NCBI GenBank assembly: GCA_020832365.1
Contig: JAFIEX010000001.1
Span: forward strand, 1 to 61,299
Length of the DNA stretch: 61,299 nt
Origin: Crocinitomicaceae bacterium
GTDB lineage: Bacteria; Bacteroidota; Bacteroidia; Flavobacteriales_D; Crocinitomicaceae
Direction of reading: 5' to 3'
Numbering within the stretch: the first letter of the stretch is position 1; every line of letters begins with the position of its first letter. Below, piece by piece: positions 5,027 to 47,490 of this stretch. Under the pieces are notes generated by a model. That model was not told the DNA's origin, ran no database searches, and saw only the letters and a program-made list of their open reading frames with translations. The translations under genes were made by a program, and so were the position numbers.

Positions 5027-6307
5027 TTACTGAATGGCATTTTTTAAAGCGAGCCCAAAACGATAAACATCTTCAAAAGAGTTGTAAAGCGGCGCAGGAG
5101 CTACTCTAATTACATTTGGCTCCCTCCAATCTGCAACGACACCTTGTGCACTTAGCGCTTCAAAGAGCTTCTTGCCTTGCCCATGTGCGAGAATGGAAAG
5201 CTGTGACCCTCGTTTTGAAGGATCTTTAGGTGTAATTATTTCGAAATCTACTTTACTAGTATTGCTAGAGATGTCGGTTATAATGAATTCCAAGTAACCT
5301 GTTAAAAGCTCTCTTTTTTTAGAAACAGCTGTCATTCCAGCTTTGTCAAATAAATCAAGAGCTGCGCGATGTGCTGCCATTCCGAGAACTGGAGCATTAC
5401 TTAATTGCCAGCCTTCTGCACCAGGAATAGGTTGGAAGTTTTTCTCCATTTTAAAGCGCACGGACTTATCATGACCCCACCACCCAGCAAATCTTGGAAG
5501 CGCTTTGTTGTGTGCGTGTTTTTCATGTACAAATAATCCCGATACGCCTCCAGGGCTACTGTTAAGGTATTTATAACTGCACCATGCTGCAAAATCCACT
5601 TGCCAATCATGTAATTTTAGTTCAACATTACCCGCTGCGTGTGCTAGGTCAAAACCAACAATGGCACCTTGTGCATGACCAGCAGTAGTTATTTTCTCCA
5701 AATCAAAAAATTGTCCCGTATAATAATTCACCCCTCCAAACATTACCAATGCTAATTCGTCTCCAGCCTCTTCAATTGCTGAGAGAATATCCTCTTCTCG
5801 AATGAGATGTTCTCCTGCTCTTGGCCCAACTTCGATGATTCCATCAGCTGGATCTATACCATGAAAGGCAACTTGAGAGGCGAGGGCATATTGGTCAGAA
5901 GGAAATGCTTTTGCCTCACAAATAATTTTATAACGTGTTTCAGTTGGTCGATAAAAGGAAACCATGAGCAGGTGTAAGTTCGTTGTAAGTGAATGGGTAA
6001 CCACTACCTCAATGGGTTTAGCACCCGCAATTTTAGCTAATTTTTCAGTTAATAGTTCGTGATAGGAGTACCAAGGATTTTTAGCTTCAAAATGCCCTTC
6101 TACTCCCCATTTTGCCCAATCATCCAATTCCTGCTGTATGTATTTAGCTGTTTGTCTTGGTTGCAATCCAAGCGAATTACCAGTAAAATAAACCACTTCA
6201 TTTTCGTGGAAAGTTGGAAAAAGAAATTCCGCTCTAAACTTTCTGAGTGGATCTTCTTTATCCATGTTTTGAGCAAAAGCAAGATTGTTTTGGTATGAAT
6301 TGGACAT
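5027..6307 (-). CDS. kynU: Kynureninase
   Basis: 426 aa. FTGNSLGLQP near the N-terminus and CSYKYLNSSPGG (PLP-lysine motif) match kynureninases. Length is typical. Confidence 0.9.
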   Translation of the reverse strand: MSNSYQNNLAFAQNMDKEDPLRKFRAEFLFPTFHENEVVYFTGNSLGLQPRQTAKYIQQELDDWAKWGVEGHFEAKNPWYSYHELLTEKLAKIAGAKPIEVVVTHSLTTNLHLLMVSFYRPTETRYKIICEAKAFPSDQYALASQVAFHGIDPADGIIEVGPRAGEHLIREEDILSAIEEAGDELALVMFGGVNYYTGQFFDLEKITTAGHAQGAIVGFDLAHAAGNVELKLHDWQVDFAAWCSYKYLNSSPGGVSGLFVHEKHAHNKALPRFAGWWGHDKSVRFKMEKNFQPIPGAEGWQLSNAPVLGMAAHRAALDLFDKAGMTAVSKKRELLTGYLEFIITDISSNTSKVDFEIITPKDPSKRGSQLSILAHGQGKKLFEALSAQGVVADWREPNVIRVAPAPLYNSFEDVYRFGLALKNAIQ

Positions 6308-11011: not shown

Positions 11012-12463
11012 ATGAACACTGATTTAGATTATGAAGTACAGCTAGATGCGCATGTTAAGAGAGAACGTGCAGCAGTAAAGCTGGCAAGTAAAACAGGTCA
11101 ATTATTGTATGACCATGGTGTGGAGCTTGTTTTATTTAGAAACCACCTAGTGAACCTCTCAGTTTCGGAAATTCTTAACCTGCATGAGTATGCAGCAAAA
11201 GTAGTGAACAAACCAATCGATGTTTTCACAACTTCAACATTGGCAGAAGAACTTTTGAAGATGGATTTGGCGCCATCTAAAATTGATATTGGGAAACTTA
11301 CTTTTGAATACTTGGAAGAGCAAAGTAAATTTGCTTCAAAAGCTGACTTTTTAAATGACAAATTGGCTAGCTTTATTGGAAAAGATAAATTCCAACTGGC
11401 ACCAAGAGATGTGGTTTTGTATGGCTTTGGTCGTATTGGTCGTCTTGCAGCGCGTGAATTAATCAAACAAGCTGGTAAAGGACAGCAGTTGCGTTTAAGA
11501 GCAATTGTAACGAGAGACAACTCAGATTTAACTATCACTAAGCGTGCAGCATTGTTTAAAAATGATTCTGTGCACGGAGCTTTTGATGGAACTGTAGACC
11601 TGGATTTAGAGAACAAGACACTGACAATTAATGGTCAAACGATTCAAATGATTGCAGCAAAGAATCCTGAGGACATTGATTATACAGCTTATGGTATTAA
11701 AAATGCCTTATTAATTGATAATACTGGTGTTTTTACAGATAGAACTGCTTTGAGTCGTCATTTGCAATCAAATGGTGTAGATAAAGTAATTTTAACTGCT
11801 CCAGGGAAGGAGATTCCAAATATTGTTTATGGCATTAACCAAGGAGATTTAGATATAGAAAATGAGAAAATATTCTCAGCGGCGTCTTGTACAACAAATG
11901 CTATTTCTCCTGTTTTGAAGGTCGTAAATGATGCTTTCGGTATCGAAAAAGGTCATATCGAAACGGTGCATGCGTACACCAATGATCAAAACTTATTGGA
12001 CAATATGCATAACAAGCCTAGAAGAGGTAGGTCTGCGGCCATCAACATGGTAATTACTTCAACTGGTGCGGGTAAAGCCGTAACAAAGGTTATTCCTGAT
12101 TTACAAGATAAATTAACGGCAAATGCTGTGCGTGTTCCTACGCCTAATGGTTCTTTAGCTATTTTGTCTTTGGCTTTGCGTTCAGAAACAACTGTGGCAG
12201 AAATCAATGAGAAGATTCGTTTTGCTGCGTTAAATGGTAATTTAGTAAATCAAATCTATTATTCGATTGATCCAGAATTAGTATCAAACGATATCATTGG
12301 AAATACATGCTGCTCAGTTTATGATGCACCTGCAACAATTGTTTCCCCTGATGGAAAAAATGTAGTGCTTTACACATGGTACGATAATGAGTTTGGTTAT
12401 ACCAAGCAGGTTATTCGATTGGCGAAATATGTAGCCAAGGTGAGAAGAATGATTTATTACTAG
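11012..12463 (+). CDS. Long-form glyceraldehyde-3-phosphate dehydrogenase paralog (about 130-aa N-terminal extension)
   Basis: 483 aa. Rossmann motif YGFGRIGR begins about res 137. Catalytic-Cys motif SAASCTTNAISP and C-terminal WYDNEFGY. Confidence 0.8.
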   Translation: MNTDLDYEVQLDAHVKRERAAVKLASKTGQLLYDHGVELVLFRNHLVNLSVSEILNLHEYAAKVVNKPIDVFTTSTLAEELLKMDLAPSKIDIGKLTFEYLEEQSKFASKADFLNDKLASFIGKDKFQLAPRDVVLYGFGRIGRLAARELIKQAGKGQQLRLRAIVTRDNSDLTITKRAALFKNDSVHGAFDGTVDLDLENKTLTINGQTIQMIAAKNPEDIDYTAYGIKNALLIDNTGVFTDRTALSRHLQSNGVDKVILTAPGKEIPNIVYGINQGDLDIENEKIFSAASCTTNAISPVLKVVNDAFGIEKGHIETVHAYTNDQNLLDNMHNKPRRGRSAAINMVITSTGAGKAVTKVIPDLQDKLTANAVRVPTPNGSLAILSLALRSETTVAEINEKIRFAALNGNLVNQIYYSIDPELVSNDIIGNTCCSVYDAPATIVSPDGKNVVLYTWYDNEFGYTKQVIRLAKYVAKVRRMIYY

Positions 12464-12592: not shown

Positions 12593-13240
12593 ATGCGCTT
12601 ATTTTTTTTTAGCTTAATGGTTATAATCTTGCATGGATGTACCAAAGACAGGGCCATCAATATCCCGCCAATCATGGTTGATGGTGACAGAACTGTTTTA
12701 GCTTATTGGGATTTCAACAATGTGCAGCAAGAAGATATATTACTTCCATCAGTGCAAGTAAACACAAGTTTCTTAGCTTATTTAAGTGCCTCTGGTGTTT
12801 TGAATTATTGCAGTGGTGCAAACCAGTCTTGTTATGAAACTACTAATGATTTTACAGCGTTAAATCTTTTGGAAGGATTTCAAGCAGGAACGGTACTTCG
12901 ATTGAGAAATCCAGGAGATGCATTGCTTTTAAATATCGACACTAAAGATTATGCGAACATTAGAATAGATTATGCGGCAAGACGAACAGGAAGCGGTGCA
13001 AAACTCAATGAAATTTTTTATTCCGTGGATGGGACCAATTTTTTGAATAGCGGCTTATCCGAGTTTAGTTTTGTTGTTGAAGAAGAGTGGCGTCTGATTA
13101 CTGTTGATTTATCAAATATTCCTTCGGTGAATAACAATGAAAATTTACGCATTAAAATTGATTTTGCAGACGGAAACAACAATGATTCCGGTAATAATCG
13201 CATTGATAATTTATTAATAACTGGACAAAAAATAAATTAA
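12593..13240 (+). CDS. Hypothetical lipoprotein (beta-sandwich-like)
   Basis: 215 aa with a lipoprotein signal (ILHGC). The stop abuts the next ATG (TAA-ATG). No family recognised. Confidence 0.5.
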   Translation: MRLFFFSLMVIILHGCTKDRAINIPPIMVDGDRTVLAYWDFNNVQQEDILLPSVQVNTSFLAYLSASGVLNYCSGANQSCYETTNDFTALNLLEGFQAGTVLRLRNPGDALLLNIDTKDYANIRIDYAARRTGSGAKLNEIFYSVDGTNFLNSGLSEFSFVVEEEWRLITVDLSNIPSVNNNENLRIKIDFADGNNNDSGNNRIDNLLITGQKIN

Positions 13241-13966
13241 ATGAGACAGTTATACTGGATTTTACCTTTTCTTTTCCTGCTTGCTTCTGCTTTTATAGTA
13301 AAAAAGGCGACACACATTAAACCTAAAGAAAGCTTTTTTACAAATGTACCTGAGCCTTCAGATATCTGCAATCATCCCAATAACAATAATTACTTCATGG
13401 TTAGTGACAATGGTTATTTATTTGAAGTGGATGAAAACGGACAAATTATTAGAAAAGCTGATTTTGAAGGATTTGATTGTGAGGGAGTGCACGCTGATGA
13501 AAATTTTGTCTATGTTGTAGAGGAGATGGTGCGAAAAATACGTGTTTTCGATTTGAATACACTAGAATTAGTTCGAACAGTTCATTTGCCTTATCAAGGT
13601 GGGAGAAACAAGGGGTATGAGGCGATAACTTTCAATAAAGCAAAAAATAGAATGGTTATATTAACTGAAAAAGACCCTATCTATTTGTTTGAATTGAATG
13701 AAGACTTGAGTATTTACAATGAGATTCTTCTTGATGGGATAGCACGGGATATTTCAGCAGCTACTTATCATGCTGATCATCTTTGGTTGTTAAGTGATGA
13801 AGACAGAACGGTTTTTAAGTTAGATCCGAATAACTATAAAGTTTTAGCTGCTTGGAAATTTCCAATCATTAACCCCGAAGGGTTAGTCTTTAATAAAAAA
13901 GATCAGATGGTGATCGTCTCTGATGATATGGAAAAATTCTTCATTTTTGAAACCCCATTACCATGA
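13241..13966 (+). CDS. SdiA-regulated/YjiK-like beta-propeller protein
   Basis: 241 aa with a signal anchor. The pattern EPSDI...VSDNGYLFEVDENGQIIRK...FDCEGV...VYVVEE resembles the SdiA-regulated (YjiK) family. Confidence 0.6.
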   Translation: MRQLYWILPFLFLLASAFIVKKATHIKPKESFFTNVPEPSDICNHPNNNNYFMVSDNGYLFEVDENGQIIRKADFEGFDCEGVHADENFVYVVEEMVRKIRVFDLNTLELVRTVHLPYQGGRNKGYEAITFNKAKNRMVILTEKDPIYLFELNEDLSIYNEILLDGIARDISAATYHADHLWLLSDEDRTVFKLDPNNYKVLAAWKFPIINPEGLVFNKKDQMVIVSDDMEKFFIFETPLP

Positions 13967-15135
13967 GAAAATTAATTCTTGTTGTTTTATTGATTATAGC
14001 GTATGTACCAACTAATGCGCAATTATCGCTTGGTAACGGTCAACATGTTTTGGAAATTACAGGAGGAGTTTCTACATACTACAATCAGCGTATTTTGAAA
14101 GAAACCAGTGATAATAAGAATAAAGACAGGTTTCGGTTGCGAGATGCGCAGTTGCAGCTAGAGGGACGTTACAAAAATACCATAGCATACGAGCTGCAAG
14201 TAGATTTCGTAGATTTAGCCTCGTTTGCTACTGGTGCAATTGACCCAGAGAACCCTGGTTTGATGGATGCTTTTGTAACATACAAAGGCTTAGGTTTTAT
14301 GGATATTCAAATGGGTTATGGTAAATTGTTTTATTCTCGAAGCTCCTTAGTACCTTTTCAATACACCACATTTTGGCAGCGAGCACAAATTGTAAGAGGG
14401 GATATGTTTAGCAGAAGAGATGTTGGAATTACCTTAATGAGTGATTTTTGGAGACAGCGCATCAATCTATATGGTGGCGTTTACACTGGTTTAGGTGAAT
14501 TAAGTATTCGTGGGGATAATGATGCTAGCGGTCAACCGGAATTTGTAGGTAGAATAGATATTGCTTACCCTTCACGTTTTCGGTATAGAGATATTGATGA
14601 TAAAATCACGCCAATACCAATGTTTCAACTTGGTGTAAATGGAAGGTATGCCAACAAGCAACTACCTGAGGGAAGATCATTTCCAGCTTTTTCAACTGGC
14701 GAGTTCGGTTTAAAGGTTATCAACGGCGAAAGATACCTTTATGGCATGGATGCTGCATTCCAGTACATGGGCTTTTCAGCACAATTTGAAATTCATCAAA
14801 TGCATGCTATTCCACAATTAGAGAATGATGCACTTTTTCAGGGGTTACCTATTGATCAAACAGATGGGTTTGTGCTAGCTGGAGGTTATGTGACACAATT
14901 GAACTACCATTATCGACCATGGAAGTCAATTATATCGTTGCGTTTTGAAGAATTAGACTTGAATGATTTAGTGCCGGGTAATTCACAACGATTATCTATT
15001 GGTGCAGCATATCAATTTCGGGGGTTTGATTCCATGTTGAAATTTCAATACTTTAGAATTTTGAGAGAAGAGAGCATAGACCCCATAAGATGGACAGAGC
15101 AGTTTAGAATTGGTTGGCAGTATAACTTTAAGTAG
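13963..15135 (+). CDS. Outer-membrane beta-barrel porin (phosphate-selective porin O/P-like)
   Basis: 390 aa with a signal peptide (TNAQ). The early FRLRDAQLQLEGRY motif and alternating beta-strand pattern ending ...WQYNFK fit a porin. ATGA overlap with the upstream gene. Confidence 0.55.
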   Translation: MRKLILVVLLIIAYVPTNAQLSLGNGQHVLEITGGVSTYYNQRILKETSDNKNKDRFRLRDAQLQLEGRYKNTIAYELQVDFVDLASFATGAIDPENPGLMDAFVTYKGLGFMDIQMGYGKLFYSRSSLVPFQYTTFWQRAQIVRGDMFSRRDVGITLMSDFWRQRINLYGGVYTGLGELSIRGDNDASGQPEFVGRIDIAYPSRFRYRDIDDKITPIPMFQLGVNGRYANKQLPEGRSFPAFSTGEFGLKVINGERYLYGMDAAFQYMGFSAQFEIHQMHAIPQLENDALFQGLPIDQTDGFVLAGGYVTQLNYHYRPWKSIISLRFEELDLNDLVPGNSQRLSIGAAYQFRGFDSMLKFQYFRILREESIDPIRWTEQFRIGWQYNFK

Positions 15136-15166
15136 CTTCGTTATGCTAAACTGCAATTGGTGAAAA

Positions 15167-15613
15167 TCAATGCACCATCATAATCACTATGTCATTTTGA
15201 ACTAGCGTAACCATGTTACCTGCATCATTGAGCATTGTTAATTCTAAATCAAACTTTTCTTTCACTTTTTCTGGAACATTCCTTAGGTTGTTTCTCCATT
15301 CCAATTGATTTTTCCCAGAGAATGCAGATTGATCCATTTCATCTAATTCCAAAATATTACCATTTGTTGTCCGTACAACAGCTTCTTTAATTTTCCAGTT
15401 ATTTTCAAATGGCTTTCCATCTGCTCTCCGCATCGCTATAACAACATAAGGTAATTTAGGTGTTTCGGATACCCCAGGCATTACATCAACAAAGCATTCA
15501 ACAATTAATACAAAGTCTTCGCTTGGAAGGGTTTGCGTTTTGCGTTTTAAAACGCCACAATTTGACAACAAAAAGCCAAATAGAACGATCATTAGAATAT
15601 AATTAGCCTTCAT
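15167..15613 (-). CDS. Hypothetical lipoprotein; last gene of the MbnP-like operon
   Basis: 148 aa with a lipoprotein signal (LLSNC). Lies 29 nt downstream of the hydroxylase gene on the same strand. Confidence 0.5.
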   Translation of the reverse strand: MKANYILMIVLFGFLLSNCGVLKRKTQTLPSEDFVLIVECFVDVMPGVSETPKLPYVVIAMRRADGKPFENNWKIKEAVVRTTNGNILELDEMDQSAFSGKNQLEWRNNLRNVPEKVKEKFDLELTMLNDAGNMVTLVQNDIVIMMVH

Positions 15614-15642
15614 GGATAAAATTTAGTGTTGGTTTAAAGTTA

Positions 15643-16560
15643 TTATTTTTTCTTGACTTTTGAACTTGTCTTTTTCTTTTTTCCAAAAGCCTCACGAAAA
15701 GGATGAATCATTTGACCAACAAATGTGGTTGGGATTTTTGCTTGATCATCCACGCCAAGTTGAGGGGTTTCTTTATTTCTAGGGTAATAGAAATAACCGA
15801 AAATGTGATCCCAAACCGTTAGTACCGAAGCGAAATTCACGCCATATTTTCCTGGGATATTTTTAGCATGGTGCCAATAGTGCGTCTCTGGCGTAATGAG
15901 TAAATAATTAAGTGGTTTAAAATTAACACGTATGTTGGCATGTGAGAAAAAAGTAAAACTTAGCCCTATCCACAAATAAACAGCGAAAAAGCTTGAAACC
16001 GGCACGTTTAAGAGGATAAAAGGAATAAAAAGTAGTGGTTTAAAAACTAAATATTCCATCCAGTGAAAATGCCTAGTTGATGCAAACCCTAATTCTTCTT
16101 GGGCATGATGAATTTTATGAAAGTGCCAAAGAAAATCGACGCGGTGCAATAGAAAATGCCCGAACCACTGCATAAAATCTAAAACAAAGAATATAATTAG
16201 GAATTGAACTGCGCCATTTAATTGTGTAATATCAAAAATTAAAAAATCTGAAACCCCAAAAATGCCCATGGTTTGGGTGAATATATATTCTACAGCCTTT
16301 GCAGCTGCATAAAATCCAAACAGCATCAATAAAAAGTCAATAAAAATCACATAAAAGATGTCCAAGGCAAAACCTTTTCTTCCAACAGGACTGTAAGGCA
16401 GCTTTCTTGGAAGTGTGAGTTCCATGATGAAGGTCGCAACACAAATAAAGAATACCATATATAAAGGGTTATTCCAAGCGGGATTCTTTATCATGTAACC
16501 AAAATACTGCTTGTAAAAAGCGAAGTTTTCTGCAAATACATCTATAACGGATAAAACCAT
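15643..16560 (-). CDS. Fatty acid hydroxylase / sterol desaturase superfamily membrane di-iron enzyme
   Basis: 305 aa, multi-TM. Histidine boxes HFLLHRVDFLWHFHKIHHAQEE and HYWHH. Lys-rich C-terminal tail. Confidence 0.8.
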   Translation of the reverse strand: MVLSVIDVFAENFAFYKQYFGYMIKNPAWNNPLYMVFFICVATFIMELTLPRKLPYSPVGRKGFALDIFYVIFIDFLLMLFGFYAAAKAVEYIFTQTMGIFGVSDFLIFDITQLNGAVQFLIIFFVLDFMQWFGHFLLHRVDFLWHFHKIHHAQEELGFASTRHFHWMEYLVFKPLLFIPFILLNVPVSSFFAVYLWIGLSFTFFSHANIRVNFKPLNYLLITPETHYWHHAKNIPGKYGVNFASVLTVWDHIFGYFYYPRNKETPQLGVDDQAKIPTTFVGQMIHPFREAFGKKKKTSSKVKKK

Positions 16561-16584
16561 GACATTTTTTTGTAAAATTAAAGA

Positions 16585-17607
16585 TTATGGTTCAGAAAAT
16601 AATGGGTTGTTAATGAATTCGTGGTCGGTTAATGTCTTCAGAAAGGCTAATAGTGCTTTTTTTTCTTCCAAACTAAGGTGCAAATTTTTTAATTCTGGTG
16701 CTAAAGTTTCAGTGTAAATAATTCCTTCACTGTAATGGTTGATAACATCTTCTAGTGTTTGCATGCGACCATCATGCATGTAGGGCCATGTCAATTCCAC
16801 ATTTCGTAAACTTGGGATTTTAAATTTGCCTAAATCACTTTCTCGATGGGTGATTTCCTTTCTTCCTTCATCATTAAAAACGCTGTCAATGCCATTGTTT
16901 GCAAATCCGAAGTTGCTGAATAAAGGTGGAGTGTGGCAGCTTGCGCAATGTTGATTAAATAAATTCAGGCCTTCTTTTTGTTGCGCATTAAATTTACTCT
17001 GACCTCTGCGGTATTCGTCATATAAGGATTGATCTGAAATTTTTACTGCCATAAATTGTGTAAGCGCATAAAGAAGCTCTAAACTGGTTATTTCATCAAC
17101 ATCAAAGGCTTCTTTAAATAATTTTTGGTAGCTGGCAATTCCATTAAGCCGATCTAGTAGGTCGTTTAAGGGCATGTTCATTTCGTTCTCATCCGTAATG
17201 GGCGCTACGGAAAATATTTCAATGTGATTGACACCACCATCCCAGTTAAAGTGTGGATGCCATGCAAGGTTAAACAAAGGAGGGCTGTTTCTTCTTCCTT
17301 GCGCACCATTTACACCTGATGAAAGCGCTTTTCCTGGGTCACTAAATGCGGCATGTTGGAAATGACAAGATGCGCATGAAACGGAGTTGTCTATAGATAA
17401 ACGTTTGTCATAAAACATTTTGCGGCCAAGCTCAAAGCCCTTTACACTTAAGGAATTATTGGTTTGAAATTGGTAAACAGGTGTTGGGAAATCTGATGGC
17501 ACCTCAAAATCGATGATGCGATTTTGAGGTGCGTTATCAAATCTTTTTTGGCATGCAACTAAGCTAATTACCAAACAAGCAAGTAGTATTTGAACTACAT
17601 TTTTCAC
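16585..17607 (-). CDS. Di-haem cytochrome c peroxidase family enzyme (MauG/MbnH-like)
   Basis: 340 aa with a lipoprotein-type signal (LVAC). Two haem-c motifs, CASCH twice. The GTG start overlaps the upstream stop by 1 nt (TAGTG). Confidence 0.85.
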   Translation of the reverse strand: MKNVVQILLACLVISLVACQKRFDNAPQNRIIDFEVPSDFPTPVYQFQTNNSLSVKGFELGRKMFYDKRLSIDNSVSCASCHFQHAAFSDPGKALSSGVNGAQGRRNSPPLFNLAWHPHFNWDGGVNHIEIFSVAPITDENEMNMPLNDLLDRLNGIASYQKLFKEAFDVDEITSLELLYALTQFMAVKISDQSLYDEYRRGQSKFNAQQKEGLNLFNQHCASCHTPPLFSNFGFANNGIDSVFNDEGRKEITHRESDLGKFKIPSLRNVELTWPYMHDGRMQTLEDVINHYSEGIIYTETLAPELKNLHLSLEEKKALLAFLKTLTDHEFINNPLFSEP

Positions 17608-18428
17608 TAATGTAAATGATCAATTATGAACCCCTCACTAAAGTTTGTTGCCATTGTCTCTGCCATTTGACCTGGCATATGTACTGATGGAGTATTGCTA
17701 ATTTGAATACCTCCATGCCATAATCTGGCTGCATTAACAAGGAAATGTATTGAGGCACCACCTCCTTTTCTAACGTTCAGTTCCTCACCATTGAATGTTT
17801 GGTTATTAATTCGTATGGCGTCTCCACCAACATCTTTACTGAAACCACCAATATGGTATGCGAAAAAGTCCATTGGCGCATCGTTGGAATGGCCTTCTGC
17901 TTTAATGAAAATGTATCCTGTTGTCCAAGACCAAAACATGCCATGCGATGGAGATAGTGCTCCAGTTTGCGCTCCAGAAACATTTCTTGTAGAATCTACA
18001 CCAATCATGTATGAAATTTCTGTATATTTTCCTAAAGGAACTCCTTCTAATACAATTTGTGGAACAGTGTTTTCTGTAACTTTAACTAAGTGGTAGCTTT
18101 CGTTTTCTGTCCACCAAGTACCATCAGCATTTTTCAATTTCACATTCGAAATGTAATAATTAAGCGTCGTGAAGTTGATATGGTTTTGCGTGCCTGGATG
18201 GGTTAAGTCTTCATTCATTGAAAAAGGCCCCCAAGTGTTACCCCATCTATGGTCAAATTTTAGTGCAACAGTGCTGCCTTCAAAGATGCACGAACCATCA
18301 TCCTTTTTAGCATCAGGGTTATAGTTGCTTGCATTTTCATCTGTACACCCTTCTTTTTTACATCCTGTTAAAGAAAGGGCTGCTATCGCTACTAAAGCGA
18401 CAAACATGGGTTGAAATATATTTTTCAT
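17607..18428 (-). CDS. MbnP-like periplasmic lipoprotein (putative copper-binding partner of the di-haem enzyme)
   Basis: 273 aa with a lipoprotein signal (LTGC). Size, beta-rich Trp/His-rich sequence (NFTTLNYYISNVKLKNADGTWW) and the position directly upstream of, and translationally coupled to, an MbnH-like gene fit the MbnP/MbnH pairing. Family call from memory, not an HMM. Confidence 0.5.
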   Translation of the reverse strand: MKNIFQPMFVALVAIAALSLTGCKKEGCTDENASNYNPDAKKDDGSCIFEGSTVALKFDHRWGNTWGPFSMNEDLTHPGTQNHINFTTLNYYISNVKLKNADGTWWTENESYHLVKVTENTVPQIVLEGVPLGKYTEISYMIGVDSTRNVSGAQTGALSPSHGMFWSWTTGYIFIKAEGHSNDAPMDFFAYHIGGFSKDVGGDAIRINNQTFNGEELNVRKGGGASIHFLVNAARLWHGGIQISNTPSVHMPGQMAETMATNFSEGFIIDHLH

Positions 18429-18519
18429 AGCTATAATTTTTTTAATTTATATGTTGAGATTAAACTCAGCTTTATTTTTTATTTATGTAACGTTGGCGCA
18501 ACTGGTTATGTTGCTTTTC

Positions 18520-18549
18520 ACATGGATTGCTTAAACTGTTCATCCATGT
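18520..18549. promoter_or_regulatory. 8-bp inverted repeat ACATGGAT-N14-ATCCATGT upstream of the MbnP-like operon
   Basis: Read directly. It lies 92-121 nt upstream of ATG 18428 in a 245-bp intergenic region. Function unknown. Confidence 0.3.
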
Positions 18550-18673
18550 TATTTTTTTATGAAAGATGAGGGTTTTTGTTTAAAACACCTAATTAATGTC
18601 TTAGCCTTTACAAAGTTGGCAAACAGCTATTGCTGCCTCTACACCAAAACGTTAATTTAAAGTCCCCAGTTGT

Positions 18674-19045
18674 TTATGTATGTTTTGGAGGATGGTAAAT
18701 ATCCTTTACAATATGAAAGGCATATGTGAAATTATAATACCAATTATGTGACTCGTGGTATTGAAGTATTGTAAATAAATTAGTTGCTTTTTCAGAAGGA
18801 ATAAACAACGGACCAATCTCGACTTGCGACGAACTAGGCGCAATCGGTTCATTGGGTGATTCTGATGCATCTGTGTTCATTGCTAACTGACATTTTCCAT
18901 TACATTTTTTCTCTGGAATGTCTTTATTGATACACAGTTCCGTGGCATATTTTTGATAACGAATGCTATAGTCTAACAGAACACCAAACTTGTAACCCGC
19001 GGGGAGTATAAGCGTAAAAAGTGTTATGTAAACGAACCATTTCAT
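18674..19045 (-). CDS. Hypothetical small membrane-anchored protein with a Cys motif
   Basis: 123 aa. N-terminal TM followed by CINKDIPEKKCNGKCQL. Lies 7 nt downstream of the coiled-coil gene. Confidence 0.4.
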   Translation of the reverse strand: MKWFVYITLFTLILPAGYKFGVLLDYSIRYQKYATELCINKDIPEKKCNGKCQLAMNTDASESPNEPIAPSSSQVEIGPLFIPSEKATNLFTILQYHESHNWYYNFTYAFHIVKDIYHPPKHT

Positions 19046-19052
19046 TGAAATA

Positions 19053-19910
19053 CTACTTAACAGTGACTACTAAATAATTTGAAACCCTCCAAAAAGCGTT
19101 TAGGTCGTTGATGATTAATTTGTTTCCATTCCATTCGTAAGAATTGGACGGGTGGTCTGTAATTATTCTTGGTTTATCACCAACAATAGTCAATTGCTTC
19201 GTTTTGGTTTTATCCAAACTTTGGAAGTACTTCTGATTAAGGTTGTCTGCAATATTGGTCTTTTTACCTATACCTATAAAACCACCTTCTTTCATTAAAA
19301 CATTATTTGCGATCAATTCATCTAATGTGCCATAAGCAAAATAAACTTTATTTAATTCTTTCATGACATCAAGTGCTAGTTCAACTTGCTCTTGATATTG
19401 ATCTAATAAGGCAGCGTATTCCATATCAAGATTAGCAAGCATGTTTTGCAGCGCTACTATTTGTTCGTCACGCGACCGAATATCTAAAGCTAGCCTGTCA
19501 ATCATGGCTTGTAATTCCACAATTTTTATGCCTTGCTCTTGAATAGTCCCTTGCAGGCTTTTCATCTTTTTAGCATTTTCTTCTCTTAAATAGTTAAGGT
19601 TTTGAATTTGCTGTAAAACCCACTCCTTGTCGTCATTTGTTAGCTCGGGATCACTACTTTTTATTCGAATTTGATCTTGTTTCAAAGCTATTTTGGCAAG
19701 GTTGTCTTGGATTTCATTAAAAAATGCAATGGATTCATTTAAGACGGAATCTTTAATTGTTTGCTCTAACTCCATTTGCCTAATCTGATTGCGTAAAGCA
19801 ATGATTTCTGCATTTTCCAGTTCCTCAGACTCTAAGATATTCAAATCCTTATCGTTGGTGCATGATAAAACAACGAAAAATAATATACAAAACACAGAGA
19901 ACACCCTCAT
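19053..19910 (-). CDS. Hypothetical coiled-coil lipoprotein
   Basis: 285 aa with a lipoprotein signal (VLSC). About 150 aa of heptad-like Q/E/L-rich sequence, then a globular C-terminal domain. Confidence 0.5.
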   Translation of the reverse strand: MRVFSVFCILFFVVLSCTNDKDLNILESEELENAEIIALRNQIRQMELEQTIKDSVLNESIAFFNEIQDNLAKIALKQDQIRIKSSDPELTNDDKEWVLQQIQNLNYLREENAKKMKSLQGTIQEQGIKIVELQAMIDRLALDIRSRDEQIVALQNMLANLDMEYAALLDQYQEQVELALDVMKELNKVYFAYGTLDELIANNVLMKEGGFIGIGKKTNIADNLNQKYFQSLDKTKTKQLTIVGDKPRIITDHPSNSYEWNGNKLIINDLNAFWRVSNYLVVTVK

Positions 19911-20010
19911 ATAATCTATTTCTTATACGAAGATAGCACATTGAGAACAATAATTCTGATTTTTTCTACAAATTCTTTATATAGGTGATAAAAATCAGTT
20001 TATTTCGGCT

Positions 20011-21588
20011 CTAAATCTTGTTGATCTTATGAATTGATTTTCGCTGAGTATTTGCGCTTTCCGCTTTTAAAAGGTAATTGCCGCTAGCAAATGATGAAAT
20101 ATCTATAGGGATTAAGTTGTTCCCTTCTTGAATATTGAACGTTTGGCTGAAAACGTTTTTTCCTTGAGTGTCAAAAATGGCAACTTTCAATGGTTCAGCA
20201 ATATTATTTGAAGTAATTGAAAGTTGGATTTTATCTTTTGCTGGATTTGGAAAGATAATAATTGAAAAGTTATCAGTATCACAGTGTTCTCCAATGGGGC
20301 CAAAAAATTCAAATTCACCATCAAAGTCCTTTTGCAATAATCTGTAATAATTAACTTGTCCTCGGTGCGGTGTATTATCTGTGAAAGAATAATTTGATAT
20401 TTGATTGGTTGTGCCTTGTGCATCCACTGTTGCTATTGCTTCCCAATCGCTTCCATCTGCACTTCTTTCAATTTTAAAATGCATTGCATTTACTTCTGAA
20501 AGTGTTTGCCAATTTATTACGATACTTCCATTATTGGTGCATGTTGTCCAGAAATTGCTCATAATTACAGGGAGGGTGTTGGGAGCAGGAACAAGTTCCC
20601 CATCACTTAATAGCATTGCGCCTCCAGCATATCCATCGAAATTGATTTGCGAGAGCTGGGCTGTCGTTAAGGCACTTGAGTTGTTGCCGATATAAATTTT
20701 CCCAGCGGTTCCTGAGGTAGCTGCTAATCCTTGCCACCCGAAAATTGTCAATGTTGCCGATGAGTTCCAAGTGATGCCGCTGCTATTGGAGAATCTTAAC
20801 TCGTGTATATCGTTCTGAAGTTGAATATTGGAGCTGAGGTCTAGCCTTAGGTTGCCCGACGTGTTTATGATGCGATTCGTTGCGATAAAGCTAGTGCTAA
20901 GCGTACCACCATTCAAAATAAATGTAGTACTAAGTGAAGTATTTCCTACTGGGTTAAGTTGTATGGTGCCATTGTTAATTTGAGTCGCACCGCTGTAGGT
21001 GTTCCCAGCATTGGTGAAAACAGTTATACCTGTTCCATTTTTTGTAATGCTCCCTCCGGTTCCTGTAATTGGACCGTCTAAAGTAAAAATACCAGGGCCA
21101 TCGAAAACAGCGTTGTTGTTATTCAAAAATAGGTCGCTAGTAAATAACACGTTTCCCGACTGTGCCTGAAAGTCTACATTAGCTCCATCAACACCAAAAG
21201 GCACATTGAAAGTTTGTAAATTGGCAGAAGCACTGTAGAAGCCTTTGGATAGGCTTATGCCGCCTCCAGATGCTGCATTATATGTTCTGTTAATTGTTAC
21301 GGTGCTTTGTATGTTTAAATCTCGTAATTGAAAAAATGCTCCATTAACGGTCATTGGATTGTTATTGTTATGACCAATATAAACATCATTTCTAGTGAAA
21401 TCATCTGGTCGGGCTCGATTTCCATCGAATTGATAAAACCATGGATTCGCTCCATCCCACCAATTACCAGTACCAGAATTATTCCTATTAAATACATCTT
21501 GTTGTGCAGCTAAAAAGTAGGGTACAAAAACTAGCAAAGTCAAACATTTTAACTTTGCTAGTGTAATAGTATTTGGTGGAAATTTCAT
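20011..21588 (-). CDS. T9SS-secreted protein with autotransporter-associated beta-strand (PATR-like) repeats
   Basis: 525 aa with a signal peptide. Repeats of the type GTGGSITKNGTGITVFTNAGNTYSGATQINNGTIQL. C-terminal type A sorting domain (IIIFPNPAKDKIQLS...YLLKAES). Confidence 0.65.
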   Translation of the reverse strand: MKFPPNTITLAKLKCLTLLVFVPYFLAAQQDVFNRNNSGTGNWWDGANPWFYQFDGNRARPDDFTRNDVYIGHNNNNPMTVNGAFFQLRDLNIQSTVTINRTYNAASGGGISLSKGFYSASANLQTFNVPFGVDGANVDFQAQSGNVLFTSDLFLNNNNAVFDGPGIFTLDGPITGTGGSITKNGTGITVFTNAGNTYSGATQINNGTIQLNPVGNTSLSTTFILNGGTLSTSFIATNRIINTSGNLRLDLSSNIQLQNDIHELRFSNSSGITWNSSATLTIFGWQGLAATSGTAGKIYIGNNSSALTTAQLSQINFDGYAGGAMLLSDGELVPAPNTLPVIMSNFWTTCTNNGSIVINWQTLSEVNAMHFKIERSADGSDWEAIATVDAQGTTNQISNYSFTDNTPHRGQVNYYRLLQKDFDGEFEFFGPIGEHCDTDNFSIIIFPNPAKDKIQLSITSNNIAEPLKVAIFDTQGKNVFSQTFNIQEGNNLIPIDISSFASGNYLLKAESANTQRKSIHKINKI

Positions 21589-32818: not shown

Positions 32819-35800
32819 ATGAAACAAACACTTTTACTATTTACAGTCGTATTTTCATTAAGTTTCTCAATGGCTCAAACTAGCGCTATTAAGGGTAAAG
32901 TAATCGACGAAGAAGGTAATCCTATATTTAATGCAGCTATTGTAGTTGAAGGAGAAGGAAAGGGTGCCTACACTAATATGAATGGAGATTATGAGGTAGC
33001 TGGTTTAACGCCAGGTGAATACACAGTCTCTTTTAGAAGTAGTGAGTTTAAAAACAAACAAGAAACGGTTACACTAGGTGCAGGTGAGACATTAGTTCTT
33101 GATGTCATCATGTCTACTTCTCAGGATTTAGAGGAAGTCATGGTAATCGGCTATGGAACCATGCGGACTTCTGATTTAACGGGTGCAGCAACTGTGATTA
33201 AAGAAGATAAGTTTTTCAAGGGGAATGTTGGTACACCAGAGCAGTTGATTATGGGTAAAGCTGCTGGTCTTAGGGTTAATACCAATGATGGGTCTCCTGG
33301 AGGAGGGAGTACGATTCGTTTACGTGGAGGAACTTCTTTGAATGCTAGCAATGATCCTTTGATTGTGGTGGATGGTGTGCCTTTAGATAATGGTGGTATT
33401 GCTGGTTCGCCAAACGCTTTGTCATTAATAAATCCGAATGACATTGAATCTTTCGTGATTTTGAGAGATGCTTCAGCAACTGCTATTTACGGTTCTAGAG
33501 GTGCAAATGGTGTGATTTTAATTACCACCAAGAAAGGGACGAAAAAGAACAAACTCAATGTTAATGTGCAGTCTATTCATAATGTAATGACAGTTGCTCG
33601 CTATGCGGATGTCCTTTCTGCTGATGAATTCAGAGAGTTGGTTACTACAAACGGAACACCTGCTCAGGCTGCCTTATTGGGAGAAGCCAATACAGATTGG
33701 CAACGTGAAGTTTTCAGGACAGCCTACACCGCAGACAATAACGTGTCTGTTACTGGAGGGATTAACAATTTACCTTACAGGCTTTCTTTTGGTAATAGAT
33801 ATGAAAATGGTTTGTTGCAAAATGATAGATTTATTAGAAACTCCTTGGCTTTGTCTTTAACGCCTCAGTTTTTGGATGGTGATTTGCAAATTCAATTCAA
33901 CAATAGGCTTGCCCATACTTCAAATGTGTTTGCTGATAGAGGAGCCTTAGGCGCTGCCTATTTTGATCCTACACAACCAGTTTTTGTCGATAGTGAGGAC
34001 TTTGGTGGTTATTTCGAGTGGTTGGAAAATAACGGTGCGCCAAATCAACTTTCTCCGCGAAATCCAGTTGGATTAATCAATCAAAGAGATGACCGAAGTT
34101 CAGTGTTGCGATATATTGGTAATTTAAAGGCTACTTATCGACTACCTTTTTGGAGAGAGGTAAGAACAACTGTAAATGTTGGTACGGATAGAGCAGAAAG
34201 TTCAGGTTCCGTAACTACAGCTGCATCATCTGCTGCAGGATTTTTCTCGCAAGGAAGTTTCAATGAGTATTTTCAAAGACGAGGGAATCAGTTGTTTGAG
34301 GCATTTGTTAACTATAATAATGGTGAAAATGATTCTCGTCATTTAATTGATTTTACTGGAGGTTGGACAGCTCAAGATTGGTTTACAATTAGTCCTAATT
34401 TGCCAATTTTCAATGAAGCTCAGGATTCTATTATTCAACCTGCTGCTGCCAATCCTTTTGATACCAGAAACGCTTTGCTTTCCTATTTTGGTAGGGGAAT
34501 TTATACTTTTGATGACAGATATGTGCTCAACCTTTCGGTGCGTCGCGATGGGTCTTCACGCTTCAGCCCTGAAACGAGATGGGGAACTTTCCCTTCTGCA
34601 TCTGCTGCATGGTTAATTTCAAGAGAAAACTTCATGAAAGATCTTAAATGGATGAGCATGATGAAAGTAAGAGCTGGATGGGGTGTGACTGGTCAGCAGG
34701 ATGGTATTGGTGATTACGCCTATATCCCTAATTATTTCCCAGGTTCAGAAACAGCTCAGTATGGTTTTGGTGGTGTTTTCTACCCTGTACTTCGACCTGA
34801 TGGTTTTGATGCGAATCTGCGCTGGGAAACAACATCGAGTATCAACATTGGTGTAGATTTTGGATTTTTTAAAGATAGGATTAACGGTTCAATTGATATT
34901 TATTCTAGAGATACCAGAGATTTATTGGCAGTAGTTCCGGTACCTGCTGGTTCTAACTTTACTAATCAAATTTTAACCAACGTTGGTGCAATGCGCAATG
35001 AAGGTATTGAATTCATGTTAAATGCGGCTGTAATCTCCAAAAAAGACACAAGATTGGATATTTCCGGTAATGCGGCATATAATTTTAATACCGTATTACA
35101 GTTGACGCAAATTGAAGACCCTAATTCTCCAGGTGTTTTAGTAGGGGGAATAGCCGGTGGAATAGGTAATACAATTCAAGTTCATCAAATTGGGTCGCCA
35201 ACATTTTCTTTCTTTGTCTATGAACAGCAGTATGATGCTGATGGTATGCCAATTGAAGTAGGTGCGCCTAATCCTGCGGGAGGAACTTATACAGAATTAG
35301 ATGCCTTTGTGGATAGAAATGGAGACGGTGTTATTAATATTGAAGATAGATATGTACTTGGTCAAGCGGCACCACTCTGGTTTTTAGGTCTTTCTTTCGA
35401 CTATTCCTATAAAAAGTGGTTTGCTTCATTAGGCGTTAGGGCTGAATTGGGTGGTTATATTTATAATAACATTCATTCGAACAATGGAACTTTTATGGGG
35501 ATTAACGGTACACAAGGTTTCTTGAATAACTTGACGGATTTATATTTTGAAGAGGAGTTTCAAACAACAACTGAACGTCAGTTGTTAAGTGATCACTACG
35601 TTGAAAGAGCAGATTTCCTTAGGTTAGATTATATTAGTGTTGGTTATGACTTTGGTAGATTAAAAGCTTTTAAAGAAAGAGTAACTTTCAGAGCTGCTCT
35701 GACGGTGAATAATGTTGCCGTGCTTACCCAATACAAAGGATTAGACCCCGAAATTGTAGGTGGAATTGATAATAATATTTATCCAAGACCAAGAGTGTTC

Positions 35801-35827
35801 TCATTGAATTTGTCATTTGGATTTTAA
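32819..35827 (+). CDS. susC: SusC/RagA-family TonB-dependent outer-membrane transporter
   Basis: 1002 aa. Carboxypeptidase-regulatory-like N-domain (IKGKVIDEEGNPI), plug with a TonB-box region, SusC signature LRGGTSLNASNDPLIVVDGVP, terminal ...LNLSFGF. Confidence 0.9.
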   Translation: MKQTLLLFTVVFSLSFSMAQTSAIKGKVIDEEGNPIFNAAIVVEGEGKGAYTNMNGDYEVAGLTPGEYTVSFRSSEFKNKQETVTLGAGETLVLDVIMSTSQDLEEVMVIGYGTMRTSDLTGAATVIKEDKFFKGNVGTPEQLIMGKAAGLRVNTNDGSPGGGSTIRLRGGTSLNASNDPLIVVDGVPLDNGGIAGSPNALSLINPNDIESFVILRDASATAIYGSRGANGVILITTKKGTKKNKLNVNVQSIHNVMTVARYADVLSADEFRELVTTNGTPAQAALLGEANTDWQREVFRTAYTADNNVSVTGGINNLPYRLSFGNRYENGLLQNDRFIRNSLALSLTPQFLDGDLQIQFNNRLAHTSNVFADRGALGAAYFDPTQPVFVDSEDFGGYFEWLENNGAPNQLSPRNPVGLINQRDDRSSVLRYIGNLKATYRLPFWREVRTTVNVGTDRAESSGSVTTAASSAAGFFSQGSFNEYFQRRGNQLFEAFVNYNNGENDSRHLIDFTGGWTAQDWFTISPNLPIFNEAQDSIIQPAAANPFDTRNALLSYFGRGIYTFDDRYVLNLSVRRDGSSRFSPETRWGTFPSASAAWLISRENFMKDLKWMSMMKVRAGWGVTGQQDGIGDYAYIPNYFPGSETAQYGFGGVFYPVLRPDGFDANLRWETTSSINIGVDFGFFKDRINGSIDIYSRDTRDLLAVVPVPAGSNFTNQILTNVGAMRNEGIEFMLNAAVISKKDTRLDISGNAAYNFNTVLQLTQIEDPNSPGVLVGGIAGGIGNTIQVHQIGSPTFSFFVYEQQYDADGMPIEVGAPNPAGGTYTELDAFVDRNGDGVINIEDRYVLGQAAPLWFLGLSFDYSYKKWFASLGVRAELGGYIYNNIHSNNGTFMGINGTQGFLNNLTDLYFEEEFQTTTERQLLSDHYVERADFLRLDYISVGYDFGRLKAFKERVTFRAALTVNNVAVLTQYKGLDPEIVGGIDNNIYPRPRVFSLNLSFGF

Positions 35828-35839
35828 AGAAATAGTGTT

Positions 35840-37420
35840 ATGAAGATGAATTGGAAAATTTTAGTAGTTGGTTTGATGGCCATGAGTTTTGGACTCTTCG
35901 GATGTCGCAAGTACCTGAATCAAACCCCAAAATACGGTTTAAATGCGGAGGCCGTTTTTAGTGATCCGAATAATTATATTAATGTTTTGGCAAACCTTTA
36001 CTCTGGTTTGTCAATGACAGGCTTGGAAGGTCCCGCTGGAAATGGTGACATTGCTGGGATCGATGAAGGTTTTTCAGCATACATTCGTGTGCTTTATAAC
36101 CTACAAGTGCTTCCAACGGATGAGGTGGTTTGTGGATGGAATGACCCAGGTATTCCAGAGTTGAATAACATGCAATGGTCAGCGGAAAGTCCTTTCGTCT
36201 TGGGAATGTATTACAGAATTTACTATCAAGTGATGTTGTGTAATGAGTTTATTCGTCAAGCTAGCGAAGAGCAAATGGAAAACAGAGGATTTAGTGAAGC
36301 TGATAGAACAAAAATCAGGAGGTTTAGACAAGAGGCGAGATTCTTGCGTGCACTTAGTTATTACCACGCTTTGGATTTGTTTGGTAATGTTCCATTTGTG
36401 ACAGAAGAGAATTTGGTTGGTGCATTTCAGCCAGAGCGTATTCGCAGAGCTGAGCTTTTTGATTATATTGAATCGGAAATTTTGGATATTGTTAATGATC
36501 TTCCGTTACCTTCTCCAGCAATTTATGGGCACGCAACGCAAGATGCAGCGAGAACTTTGTTGGCTAGATTGTATTTGAATGCGGAGGTTTACACTGGTGT
36601 TCCTAGGTATGCAGATTGTGCAACGCAATGTTCTCAGGTGATTAATTCGGGTGCTTATGCTTTACAAACGAATTATCCAGACCTTTTCAAAGCTGACAAT
36701 AAATTATCTAATGAAATAATATTTCCTGTTGTGTTTGATGGTTTATATGCGCAGACTTGGGGTGGAACAACTTTCCTTGTGTGTGCTGCACTCGGAGGAA
36801 CAATGAACGCAGCCGATTTTGGTGTGAATGGTGCTTGGGCTGGTTTGCGTGTAACACCACAATTTGTAGATAAATTCCCAGACTCTACACTAGATAGCAG
36901 ATACCAATTCTGGACGGATGGTCAACAAAAGGAAATTACCTCATTGACTACTTTTTCTCACGGATATGGCTTACCGAAATATAAAAATATTCGTTCCACA
37001 GGGCAAGTAGGTTCAAACAATGGAAACACGGCGTTTGTGGATATTGACTTTCCTATGTTCCGCTTAGCAGATGTTTACTTAATGTATGCTGAATGTGCAG
37101 TTCGTGGTGCAGCTGACCCAGGTCTTGGGGCCAATTATTTTAACCAAGTGCGCGAAAGAGCCTATGGAAATGCAAGTTTCAATATCGCCAGTCCAACACT
37201 ACAAGATATTTTGGATGAAAGAGGTAGAGAGTTACATTGGGAATGTGTTAGAAGAACAGATTTAATTCGTTTTAACTTGTTCACTGAAGGAGACTATTTA
37301 TGGACATTTAAAGGAGGACCTGTAAATGGTCAAGCTGTATCTTCACATCGGAACCTTTATCCGTTGCCAACAGCTGATCTTGTTTTGAATCCTAATTTGA
37401 TACAAAATACTGGTTATTAG
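35840..37420 (+). CDS. susD: SusD/RagB-family glycan-binding lipoprotein
   Basis: 526 aa with a lipoprotein signal (LFGC). Sits directly after SusC. TPR-like helical sequence with RAEL/RFLRALSYYHALDLFGNVPF. Confidence 0.9.
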   Translation: MKMNWKILVVGLMAMSFGLFGCRKYLNQTPKYGLNAEAVFSDPNNYINVLANLYSGLSMTGLEGPAGNGDIAGIDEGFSAYIRVLYNLQVLPTDEVVCGWNDPGIPELNNMQWSAESPFVLGMYYRIYYQVMLCNEFIRQASEEQMENRGFSEADRTKIRRFRQEARFLRALSYYHALDLFGNVPFVTEENLVGAFQPERIRRAELFDYIESEILDIVNDLPLPSPAIYGHATQDAARTLLARLYLNAEVYTGVPRYADCATQCSQVINSGAYALQTNYPDLFKADNKLSNEIIFPVVFDGLYAQTWGGTTFLVCAALGGTMNAADFGVNGAWAGLRVTPQFVDKFPDSTLDSRYQFWTDGQQKEITSLTTFSHGYGLPKYKNIRSTGQVGSNNGNTAFVDIDFPMFRLADVYLMYAECAVRGAADPGLGANYFNQVRERAYGNASFNIASPTLQDILDERGRELHWECVRRTDLIRFNLFTEGDYLWTFKGGPVNGQAVSSHRNLYPLPTADLVLNPNLIQNTGY

Positions 37421-43985: not shown

Positions 43986-43988
43986 GAT

Positions 43989-45323: not shown

Positions 45324-45331
45324 AGAGGATA

Positions 45332-46852: not shown

Positions 46853-46857
46853 AAAAA

Positions 46858-47490
46858 ATGAGAAAAGCAAAAGCATTAATATTTGATTTGGACGGCGTCG
46901 TTGTAACCACAGAACATAATCACTTTGTTGCATGGAAGAGAACAGCGGATCGCTTGGGGATTAATTTTTCTGAAAGAGAAAATGAAGCACTTAAGGGTCT
47001 TAGCCGCGTAGATTCGCTTCGTAAAATACTGGAAATTGGTAATAAGCAAATTGAAGAAAATTATTTTGAAGAGCTTTTGGTTGAGAAAAATAATTTTTAC
47101 AAGGCTTCTATTGCTCAATTAGACAGATCTGCGTGTCTACCTGGTGTGTTAAATTTACTATCAAAAGCCAAAGAAGAGGGTATTCCCATGGCTGTCGGTT
47201 CTTCTAGCAAGAATGCAAAGTTTATTTTAGATCGTTTAAATCTTTCGGATTATTTCCAAATCATAGTGGATGGTAATATGGTTGAACACCCAAAACCCCA
47301 CCCTGAGGTGTTTTTACAAGCCGCCGAAGCGATGAAGGTAGTGCCTAGTGAAAGCATTGTCTTTGAAGATGCAGAAAGCGGGATTAAGGCAGCTAAAGCA
47401 GGTGGATTTTATGCTATCGCAGTTGGTAATCCAAATATTGCAGCGCTAGCAGATGAGTTTTTAGAAAGTTTAGAAGAATTTAAGATATAG
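46858..47490 (+). CDS. pgmB: Beta-phosphoglucomutase
   Basis: HAD motifs FDLDGVVV, GSSSKNA and FEDAESGIKAAKAGG. The track start at 46849 is a TTG. I prefer ATG 46858 (MRKAKALIFDLDG). Confidence 0.85.
   Translation: MRKAKALIFDLDGVVVTTEHNHFVAWKRTADRLGINFSERENEALKGLSRVDSLRKILEIGNKQIEENYFEELLVEKNNFYKASIAQLDRSACLPGVLNLLSKAKEEGIPMAVGSSSKNAKFILDRLNLSDYFQIIVDGNMVEHPKPHPEVFLQAAEAMKVVPSESIVFEDAESGIKAAKAGGFYAIAVGNPNIAALADEFLESLEEFKI

Follow-up and report, generated by a model that had tools for sequence, protein, structure and literature searches.

An MbnP/MbnH-like gene pair in a Crocinitomicaceae bacterium probably belongs to a three-gene Bacteroidota cassette with a separable membrane hydroxylase as neighbour

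Here we analyse a minus-strand gene cluster in 61,299 nucleotides (nt) of DNA from a Crocinitomicaceae bacterium (GCA_020832365.1, contig JAFIEX010000001.1, positions 1–61,299 of the forward strand); this whole stretch is referred to as the window. Read along its own strand, the cluster comprises a small gene that we call s, a gene for an MbnP-family lipoprotein (P), a gene for an MbnH/MauG-like di-haem lipoprotein (H), a gene for an integral-membrane hydroxylase and a gene for a small putative lipoprotein (Table 1). We consider it likely that s, P and H form a Bacteroidota variant of the MbnP/MbnH system and that the hydroxylase is a separable neighbour of this cassette; the kynurenine and copper chemistry that the two families would imply is put forward with less confidence.

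An initial annotation of this DNA described the last four of these genes as a single operon. All four open reading frames (ORFs), of 273, 340, 305 and 148 amino acids (aa), are present where it placed them, and its account of their junctions and motifs is accurate: the TAG stop codon of P and the GTG start codon of H share one base (TAGTG), and the following gaps are 24 nt between H and the hydroxylase (16561–16584) and 29 nt between the hydroxylase and the 148-aa lipoprotein (15614–15642). H carries two CASCH motifs, at residues 78 and 221, and the hydroxylase has the His boxes HFLLH (135–139), HKIHH (148–152) and HYWHH (227–231). Lipoboxes are found in P (LTGC23), H (LVAC19) and the 148-aa protein (LSNC19), the last with an atypical Asn at position −1. 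The initial annotation left out s, the conserved third gene of the cassette, which lies upstream of P.

Table 1 Features of the s-P-H locus and its immediate neighbours in the window
Feature	Coordinates	Strand	Basis or remark
s, 123 aa	18674..19045	-	First gene of the Bacteroidota s-P-H cassette
s-P spacer, 245 bp	18429..18673	.	Contains the 8-bp inverted repeat and a block near the P start
P, MbnP-family lipoprotein, 273 aa	17607..18428	-	PF20243, fold, WxW
H, MbnH/MauG-like di-haem lipoprotein, 340 aa, GTG start	16585..17607	-	PF03150, TIGR04039, 6e1c
Hydroxylase, integral-membrane fatty-acid-hydroxylase/sterol-desaturase superfamily, 305 aa	15643..16560	-	PF04116
Putative lipoprotein, 148 aa	15167..15613	-	Very small family, without a Pfam or NCBIfam model
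Cbp1-family lipoprotein gene	19053..19910	-	NF052320

The MbnP-like identity of the 273-aa protein is borne out by its family profile, its predicted fold and its conserved WxW motif. P matches PF20243 in Pfam at 169.6 bits (cut-off 27), with residues 52–251 spanning positions 2–189 of the 189-position profile. An AlphaFold2 model built on 31 homologues (predicted local distance difference test score (pLDDT) 86.9) was compared with the PDB using Foldseek; at E ≤ 0.001 the only matches were six chains of 7L6G, the MbnP of Methylosinus trichosporium (E 3.6e-9 to 4.5e-8, probability 1.00, template modelling (TM) score 0.44–0.54), and the next match had an E value of 0.035. The WxW motif defines the MbnP family and its Trp is the kynurenine precursor (PMC11951088). 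In P the motif reads W166-S-W168, and both Trp residues are 98% conserved among 82 Bacteroidota members of the family. The same 82 sequences show conservation of the lipobox Cys23 (100%) and of Met164 (99%), His192 (98%), His60 (95%) and Met251 (90%). These four Met and His residues are, by their conservation, candidate copper ligands; the match to 7L6G comes from fold comparison.

P is a Trp-rich protein with a beta-rich body, which is preceded by an N-terminal mini-module bounded by Cys residues. This segment, CTDENASNYNPDAKKDDGSC (P residues 27–47, around 18288–18347 on the minus strand), lies between the lipobox and the MbnP domain and was found in only 15 of the 82 family members; its sole likeness in the PDB, to a segment of MPEG1 (6u2j), is not significant (E 0.67).

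For the 340-aa protein, the MbnH-like assignment is supported by the best model and the best solved relative, both of which are MbnH, and by a family-invariant Tyr. H matches PF03150 (CCP_MauG) in Pfam at 163.8 bits. Its best NCBIfam model is TIGR04039 (‘MbnH family’, 221.1 bits), with the MauG model TIGR03791 second at 187.3 bits. The best solved relative is 6e1c (‘Di-heme enzyme’, E 2.4e-43), which we take to be the structure of Methylosinus MbnH; classical peroxidases follow at E values of at least 1.9e-34 and MauG at about 1e-16. The HYSEG sequence of H, in which the Tyr is Tyr292, aligns over IYSEG of 6e1c. In MauG and MbnH a Tyr is the axial ligand of the second haem, and in classical peroxidases a Met haem ligand comes from the region that would correspond to the stretch after Tyr292. 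That stretch of H, HYSEGIIYTETLAPELKNLHL, contains no Met. By this comparison H has a Tyr, and not the Met of classical peroxidases, at the position in question, and by analogy with MauG and MbnH this Tyr would serve as the axial ligand. Across 72 sequences, both CxxCH motifs are conserved at 99–100%, Tyr292 at 100%, Trp122 (the Trp between the haems) at 93% and the lipobox Cys19 at 90% or more.

The surroundings of MbnP were surveyed by scanning one genome per species with an MbnP-family profile. This gave 540 confirmed loci. We retained the best 80, almost all of them from Bacteroidota (Crocinitomicaceae, Cryomorphaceae, Schleiferiaceae, Chitinophagales and Saprospiraceae), with MbnP proteins that are 39–56% identical to P of the window. 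With tblastn, run on a set of 82 loci (the 80 and duplicates of two of them), MbnH was found in 76 loci, nearly always directly 3′ of MbnP, and s in 51, nearly always upstream of MbnP and on its strand. Clustering of the ORFs of the 80 loci placed s in 73, P in 79 and H in 70. The P and H genes often overlap or abut, and the window has the adjacent, co-oriented mbnP and mbnH genes by which GenProp0940 recognises the pair.

ORF clustering also recovered two optional members, B (about 306 aa; 48 of the 80 loci) and L (about 129 aa, a His-rich lipoprotein, for example L081:7580-7969; 20 of the 80). The commonest architectures are s-P-H and s-P-H-B (18 loci each), s-B-L-P-H (11 loci) and s-P-H-B-L (5 loci). 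B has a CDxCGC motif just after its signal peptide and, judged by eye, the look of a beta-barrel (for example, L027:3419-4336). Neither B nor L occurs anywhere in the 61-kilobase (kb) window, which has s-P-H, and none of s, B and L is matched by a Pfam or NCBIfam model.

The s protein of the window has a hydrophobic N terminus, three Cys residues (C38, C48 and C52) within CxNKDKPxxxCNGKCxL and a C-terminal HPP. Its family, with proteins of about 130 aa, shares the consensus CxNKDKPxxxCNGKCxL and a C-terminal PP across 75 sequences. A word-index homologue search with s returned only three close relatives, and structure prediction from a three-sequence alignment gave no usable model (pLDDT 38). 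On this comparison of sequences, s is an obligatory-looking third component of the cassette and a predicted three-Cys membrane protein. The survey as a whole suggests that the P/H pair belongs to a recurrent Bacteroidota cassette with Cys- and His-rich unannotated members s, B and L. One surveyed locus has a gammaproteobacterial name (L037; CP034120.1, labelled Glaciecola amylolytica) and a Bacteroidota-like P-H pair with 46–49% identity, in which s was not found by tblastn; this is either a case of horizontal transfer or a mislabelled genome.

The 305-aa protein belongs to the fatty-acid-hydroxylase superfamily, as the initial annotation had proposed (PF04116, 84.2 bits against a cut-off of 31, with the His boxes in place). 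Eight His residues of the boxes (H135, H139, H148, H151, H152, H227, H230 and H231) are invariant in 32 homologues, as are His166 and His207, and the hydrophobic segments point to a multi-pass membrane layout. A sequence search of the PDB found no solved homologue. Public sources name its homologues ‘sterol desaturase family protein’, and its best NCBIfam match is the ornithine-lipid hydroxylase OlsE (NF052566). It shares the three His boxes and the multi-pass layout with that group, but scores 97.4 bits against a cut-off of 475 and so is not an OlsE equivalog.

Linkage between this hydroxylase and the cassette is confined to close relatives. With tblastn, a hydroxylase homologue was found in 1 of the 82 MbnP loci, 5 kb away and 33% identical, and no related hydroxylase stands beside the P-H pair in any of the 80 species-level MbnP loci. 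Nor was MbnP found in any of 80 loci anchored on relatives of the hydroxylase (30–65% identity); two of the hydroxylase loci, L087 (65%) and L089 (59%), lack MbnP over a full 6 kb on both sides. The complete four-gene arrangement recurs only in L167 and L168, which are of the same species (95% MbnP identity), and the idea of a conserved functional four-gene unit is not upheld. A shorter version, P-H-hydroxylase without the 148-aa lipoprotein, is present in four further lineages, but in none of the 80 species-level MbnP loci. Among closer relatives represented by metagenome contigs, five lineages have the hydroxylase after H, with gaps of 24 nt in the window (a lineage that includes L167 and L168), 28 nt in L083, 33 nt in L084, 32 nt in L170 and 3 nt in L169. 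It is absent after H in L085, L086, L171 and L003, with MbnP identities of 54–62%, and ORF clustering shows that unrelated genes fill the slot after H in other genomes. In neighbour-joining trees the linked hydroxylases fall into a single clade, to which the unlinked L087 and L089 are sister; the topology of this clade mirrors that of the P+H tree, in which linked loci are interspersed with unlinked ones.

Gene order at these loci forms a series. In L087 and L089, efflux genes and an S1/P1 nuclease gene on the opposite strand are followed, after a gap of 153–238 nt, by the hydroxylase. L083 and L170 have the nuclease gene (again on the opposite strand), s-P-H, the hydroxylase and an OmpA gene, and L085 and L003 have the oppositely oriented nuclease gene, s-P-H and an OmpA-like gene, with the hydroxylase absent. 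In L171, efflux genes and s-P-H are followed by a gene for a TonB-dependent receptor on the opposite strand. Because a single syntenic site exists in three states (hydroxylase alone, both, and cassette alone), the cassette and the hydroxylase are separable, and the occurrence of each alone at this site indicates that no obligate functional link ties them together. The initial annotation regarded the pairing with a membrane di-iron oxygenase as novel; the synteny series largely explains it by chromosomal position. We found no relics of s, P or H in the nuclease–hydroxylase gaps of L087 and L089, so that insertion of the cassette looks the same as its deletion.

More distant members of the hydroxylase family keep different company. 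In a group of Flavobacteriia (L124, L127-L130, L138-L141, L158, L161 and L162) the hydroxylase gene is syntenic with folE and a gene for a 100-aa membrane protein, and the same loci have a divergent pair of genes for a TonB-dependent receptor and a lipoprotein; L170 has a Fur-family gene beside its TonB-dependent receptor gene. None of these neighbours of the distant Flavobacteriia (folE, the small membrane protein, or the receptor and lipoprotein pair) is in the window. The presence of folE raised the possibility of a tetrahydrobiopterin-dependent, alkylglycerol-monooxygenase-like role for the hydroxylase, which we set aside: folE and the hydroxylase are associated in one syntenic group only, folE has a housekeeping function, and its neighbour there looks, by eye, like QueD or PTPS. 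A 303-aa gene after MbnH in L001 was also considered as a hydroxylase homologue and proved to belong to the beta-barrel-like B family.

The 148-aa lipoprotein that ends the cluster has no Pfam or NCBIfam match and was absent from the 166 surveyed loci and from L169-L171; its only other occurrence at such loci is in L167 and L168. A search of 1.84 billion sequences gave 13 representatives at E ≤ 1e-3, one of them with more than 50% identity. It shows no relationship to L, the lipoprotein of other cassettes, and from these comparisons we regard it as a species-level addition.

At the other end of the cluster, 7 nt separate s from the end of a Cbp1-family gene, which scores 110 bits with NF052320 (cut-off 90). 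L167 and L168 have a 291-aa gene in the same position, also 7 nt from s, which is a putative counterpart by position, and no homologue was found in the 166 surveyed loci. In this species the Cbp1-family gene may be transcribed together with s, but the conserved cassette does not extend to it. The Cbp1-like gene of L167 (L167:1-6375) has BcrAD_BadFG-like, Peptidase_M61 and BNR-repeat genes as neighbours; genes that match these three in Pfam family and, nearly, in length lie 23–36 kb away in the window (43137–56854), past starch-utilisation and Entner-Doudoroff genes. This points to a large rearrangement or insertion between the window and L167.

Between s and P lies a spacer for which the initial annotation had given the correct size, 245 bp, but which it had taken to be the region upstream of the operon; it separates two genes of the cassette. 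The perfect 8-bp inverted repeat reported there, ACATGGAT-N14-ATCCATGT at 18520–18527 and 18542–18549, is present. However, its proposed role as a metal-responsive operator is not supported: perfect inverted repeats of 8 bp or longer with loops of 3–30 nt turn up in 21% of 2000 dinucleotide-preserving shuffles of the spacer, and when the window is compared with its closest relative, L167, few stretches of the spacer are less well conserved than the two arms. In the same two sequences, a block near the start codon of P (around 18453–18517) is conserved. It contains GCAAC-N7-GTTGC and a CTGAG...CTCA hairpin, which forms a plus-strand terminator-like site at 18453–18470. On this comparison of two sequences, the block has a stronger claim than the 8-bp repeat to be a regulatory element. 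No Rfam family was found in 15000–20200, no exact Bacteroidota −7 box (TAnnTTTG) is present on the minus strand upstream of s or P, and sigma-70-type promoter-like and terminator-like sites are not enriched relative to shuffled sequences.

The rest of the window, as judged from a scan of its ORFs, consists of a starch-utilisation locus, Entner-Doudoroff genes and type IX secretion substrates. The cluster had been reported to lack methanobactin genes and this agrees with the scan: no methanobactin-type family such as DUF692/MbnB is among the Pfam matches of 39 window ORFs, a test that would not detect the small mbnA, and none of MbnA/B/C, MbnT and MbnI/R was detected among the same ORFs. The sole TonB-dependent receptor among the scanned ORFs is of the SusC type and lies beside a SusD-family gene (32819–37420). 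Three abutting or overlapping plus-strand genes (12593–15135) converge on the gene for the 148-aa lipoprotein across a 31-nt gap; they encode a 215-aa putative lipoprotein, a 241-aa SdiA-regulated/phytase-like protein (PF06977) and a 390-aa Porin_O_P-like protein. A kynureninase-like gene (KYNU_C and Aminotran_5; 5027–6307, minus strand) lies about 11 kb from the P gene; it belongs to the metabolism of free kynurenine, and its presence near P and H is probably a coincidence. There are also two GAPDH-family genes on the plus strand, one (52549–53541) encoding a protein of the normal 330 aa and the other (11012–12463) a protein of 483 aa, whose NAD-binding domain is preceded by an extra 130 aa or so at the N terminus.

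We propose that the core cassette, s-P-H (19045–16585, minus strand), would handle copper in the cell envelope. By analogy with Methylosinus MbnP and MbnH, H in a high-valent di-haem state would convert one of the two Trp residues in the WxW motif of P (W166 or W168) by oxidation into kynurenine, which together with conserved Met and His residues of P would form a Cu(I) site; we take this chemistry from a review of the two proteins (PMC11951088). The s protein, and in other genomes B and L, may be further parts of an envelope metal pathway, and the Cys and His motifs in their sequences are compatible with metal traffic. The hydroxylase would be a separate resident of the site that became linked to the cassette a single time, in the common ancestor of a small clade. 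In this clade it is probably co-transcribed, by read-through from the cassette, because the gap that separates it from H is short (3–33 nt).

A more ambitious version holds that s-P-H with optional B and L is an undescribed multi-component envelope pathway for copper or another soft metal, built around a kynurenine-copper lipoprotein, in which s is essential, for example as a metal acceptor across or into the inner membrane or as a redox partner of H. We advance it tentatively, as a possibility that falls somewhat short of an even chance.

Several observations weigh against the reading that we favour, a Bacteroidota variant of MbnP/MbnH with a separable hydroxylase. P falls below the cut-off of the NCBIfam equivalog model TIGR04052 (MbnP_like_WxW), with 41.4 bits against 140 over residues 68–195 only, and H falls below that of TIGR04039, with a cut-off of 362.85 bits. 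Identity between P and the solved MbnP, 7L6G, is only about 15%, and searches of the PDB with the single P sequence and with a Bacteroidota-family profile both miss that structure. No copper gene or recognisable copper enzyme is among the window ORFs scanned. In addition, the s-P-H-hydroxylase block has stayed intact, with gaps of 3–33 nt, through three flanking contexts and 56–68% protein divergence; this persistence exceeds pure chance adjacency and leaves room for a functional tie that is specific to the clade.

Under such a tie, the hydroxylase would in this clade work as a genuine accessory of the cassette, expressed from one transcript and sharing a substrate or regulatory signal with it, for example in copper- or oxidant-tuned lipid hydroxylation. 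The tight spacing in all five lineages, the single clade of linked hydroxylases with its tree mirroring that of P+H and the retention of the block in three contexts speak for this alternative, and the other usual neighbours of the hydroxylase family are absent from the window. Against it stand the complete lack of adjoining partners in either set of 80 loci, the relatives that have the cassette alone (L085, L086, L171 and L003) or the hydroxylase alone (L087 and L089), and the unrelated genes that follow H in other genomes. The His-box di-iron site of this superfamily faces the cytoplasm, and P and H are exported lipoproteins; direct delivery of copper or electrons from them to the hydroxylase would be topologically unlikely. 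Overall, we judge an accessory role to be improbable.

More improbable still is that the pair has nothing to do with copper, H being a plain periplasmic cytochrome c peroxidase for the removal of H2O2, and P a surface lipoprotein with no tie to MbnP beyond the fold. The sub-equivalog scores of both proteins, the low identity of P to MbnP with a TM score of about 0.5, and the lack of copper genes among the window ORFs could all be read in this way. However, H is closest to 6e1c, with which it has YSEG in common, its Tyr292 is invariant and no Met follows in the adjoining stretch; it is paired with P in 70 of the 80 loci, often with overlapping or abutting genes; the WxW Trp and the best conserved Met and His of P are retained at 98–99%; and the optional partners carry CDxCGC and His-rich motifs. 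These features argue against a plain peroxidase.

The closest described system is MbnP/MbnH of Methylosinus trichosporium OB3b (7L6G and 6e1c). The window likewise has adjacent genes, P then H, with the MbnP fold and WxW motif in P, and two CxxCH motifs, the MauG/MbnH-type Tyr and an inter-haem Trp in H. It differs from the Methylosinus pair in sequence distance (low identity of P, and both proteins below the equivalog cut-offs), in that both proteins are lipoproteins, and in having its own partner s, joined in other genomes by B and L, with no methanobactin genes detected. As the initial annotation noted, homologous P/H pairs are known far outside methanobactin producers (PMC3621798), and NCBI sources already name several homologues of P ‘MbnP family protein’.

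Two other systems invite comparison. MauG is a di-haem enzyme like H and acts on Trp residues of its partner protein, as H is predicted to do; it carries out the maturation of tryptophan tryptophylquinone in methylamine dehydrogenase. H scores 187.3 bits with the MauG model, far below its cut-off of 443.85, has MauG structures at E values of about 1e-16 and is partnered by an MbnP-fold protein; no methylamine dehydrogenase family is among the matches for the window ORFs scanned. In gammaproteobacterial methanotrophs, MopE and CorA are surface or periplasmic copper proteins with a kynurenine site that, like P, are encoded beside a di-haem MauG-like peroxidase such as CorB (PMC3621798, PMC11951088). 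However, the folds of MopE and CorA differ from that of MbnP (PMC11951088), and P of the window matches only MbnP by fold.

What sets this cassette apart from the described system is the sequence distance of P and H, their anchoring as lipoproteins and the unannotated partners s, B and L. The hydroxylase is best regarded as a positional neighbour, and work on the transfer of copper to a lipid hydroxylase would probably not repay the effort; the conserved s-P-H cassette with optional B and L is a more useful lead than the hydroxylase pairing. To our knowledge, copper acquisition is poorly understood in Bacteroidota, and s, B and L would be concrete candidates for upstream and downstream steps of this putative copper system.

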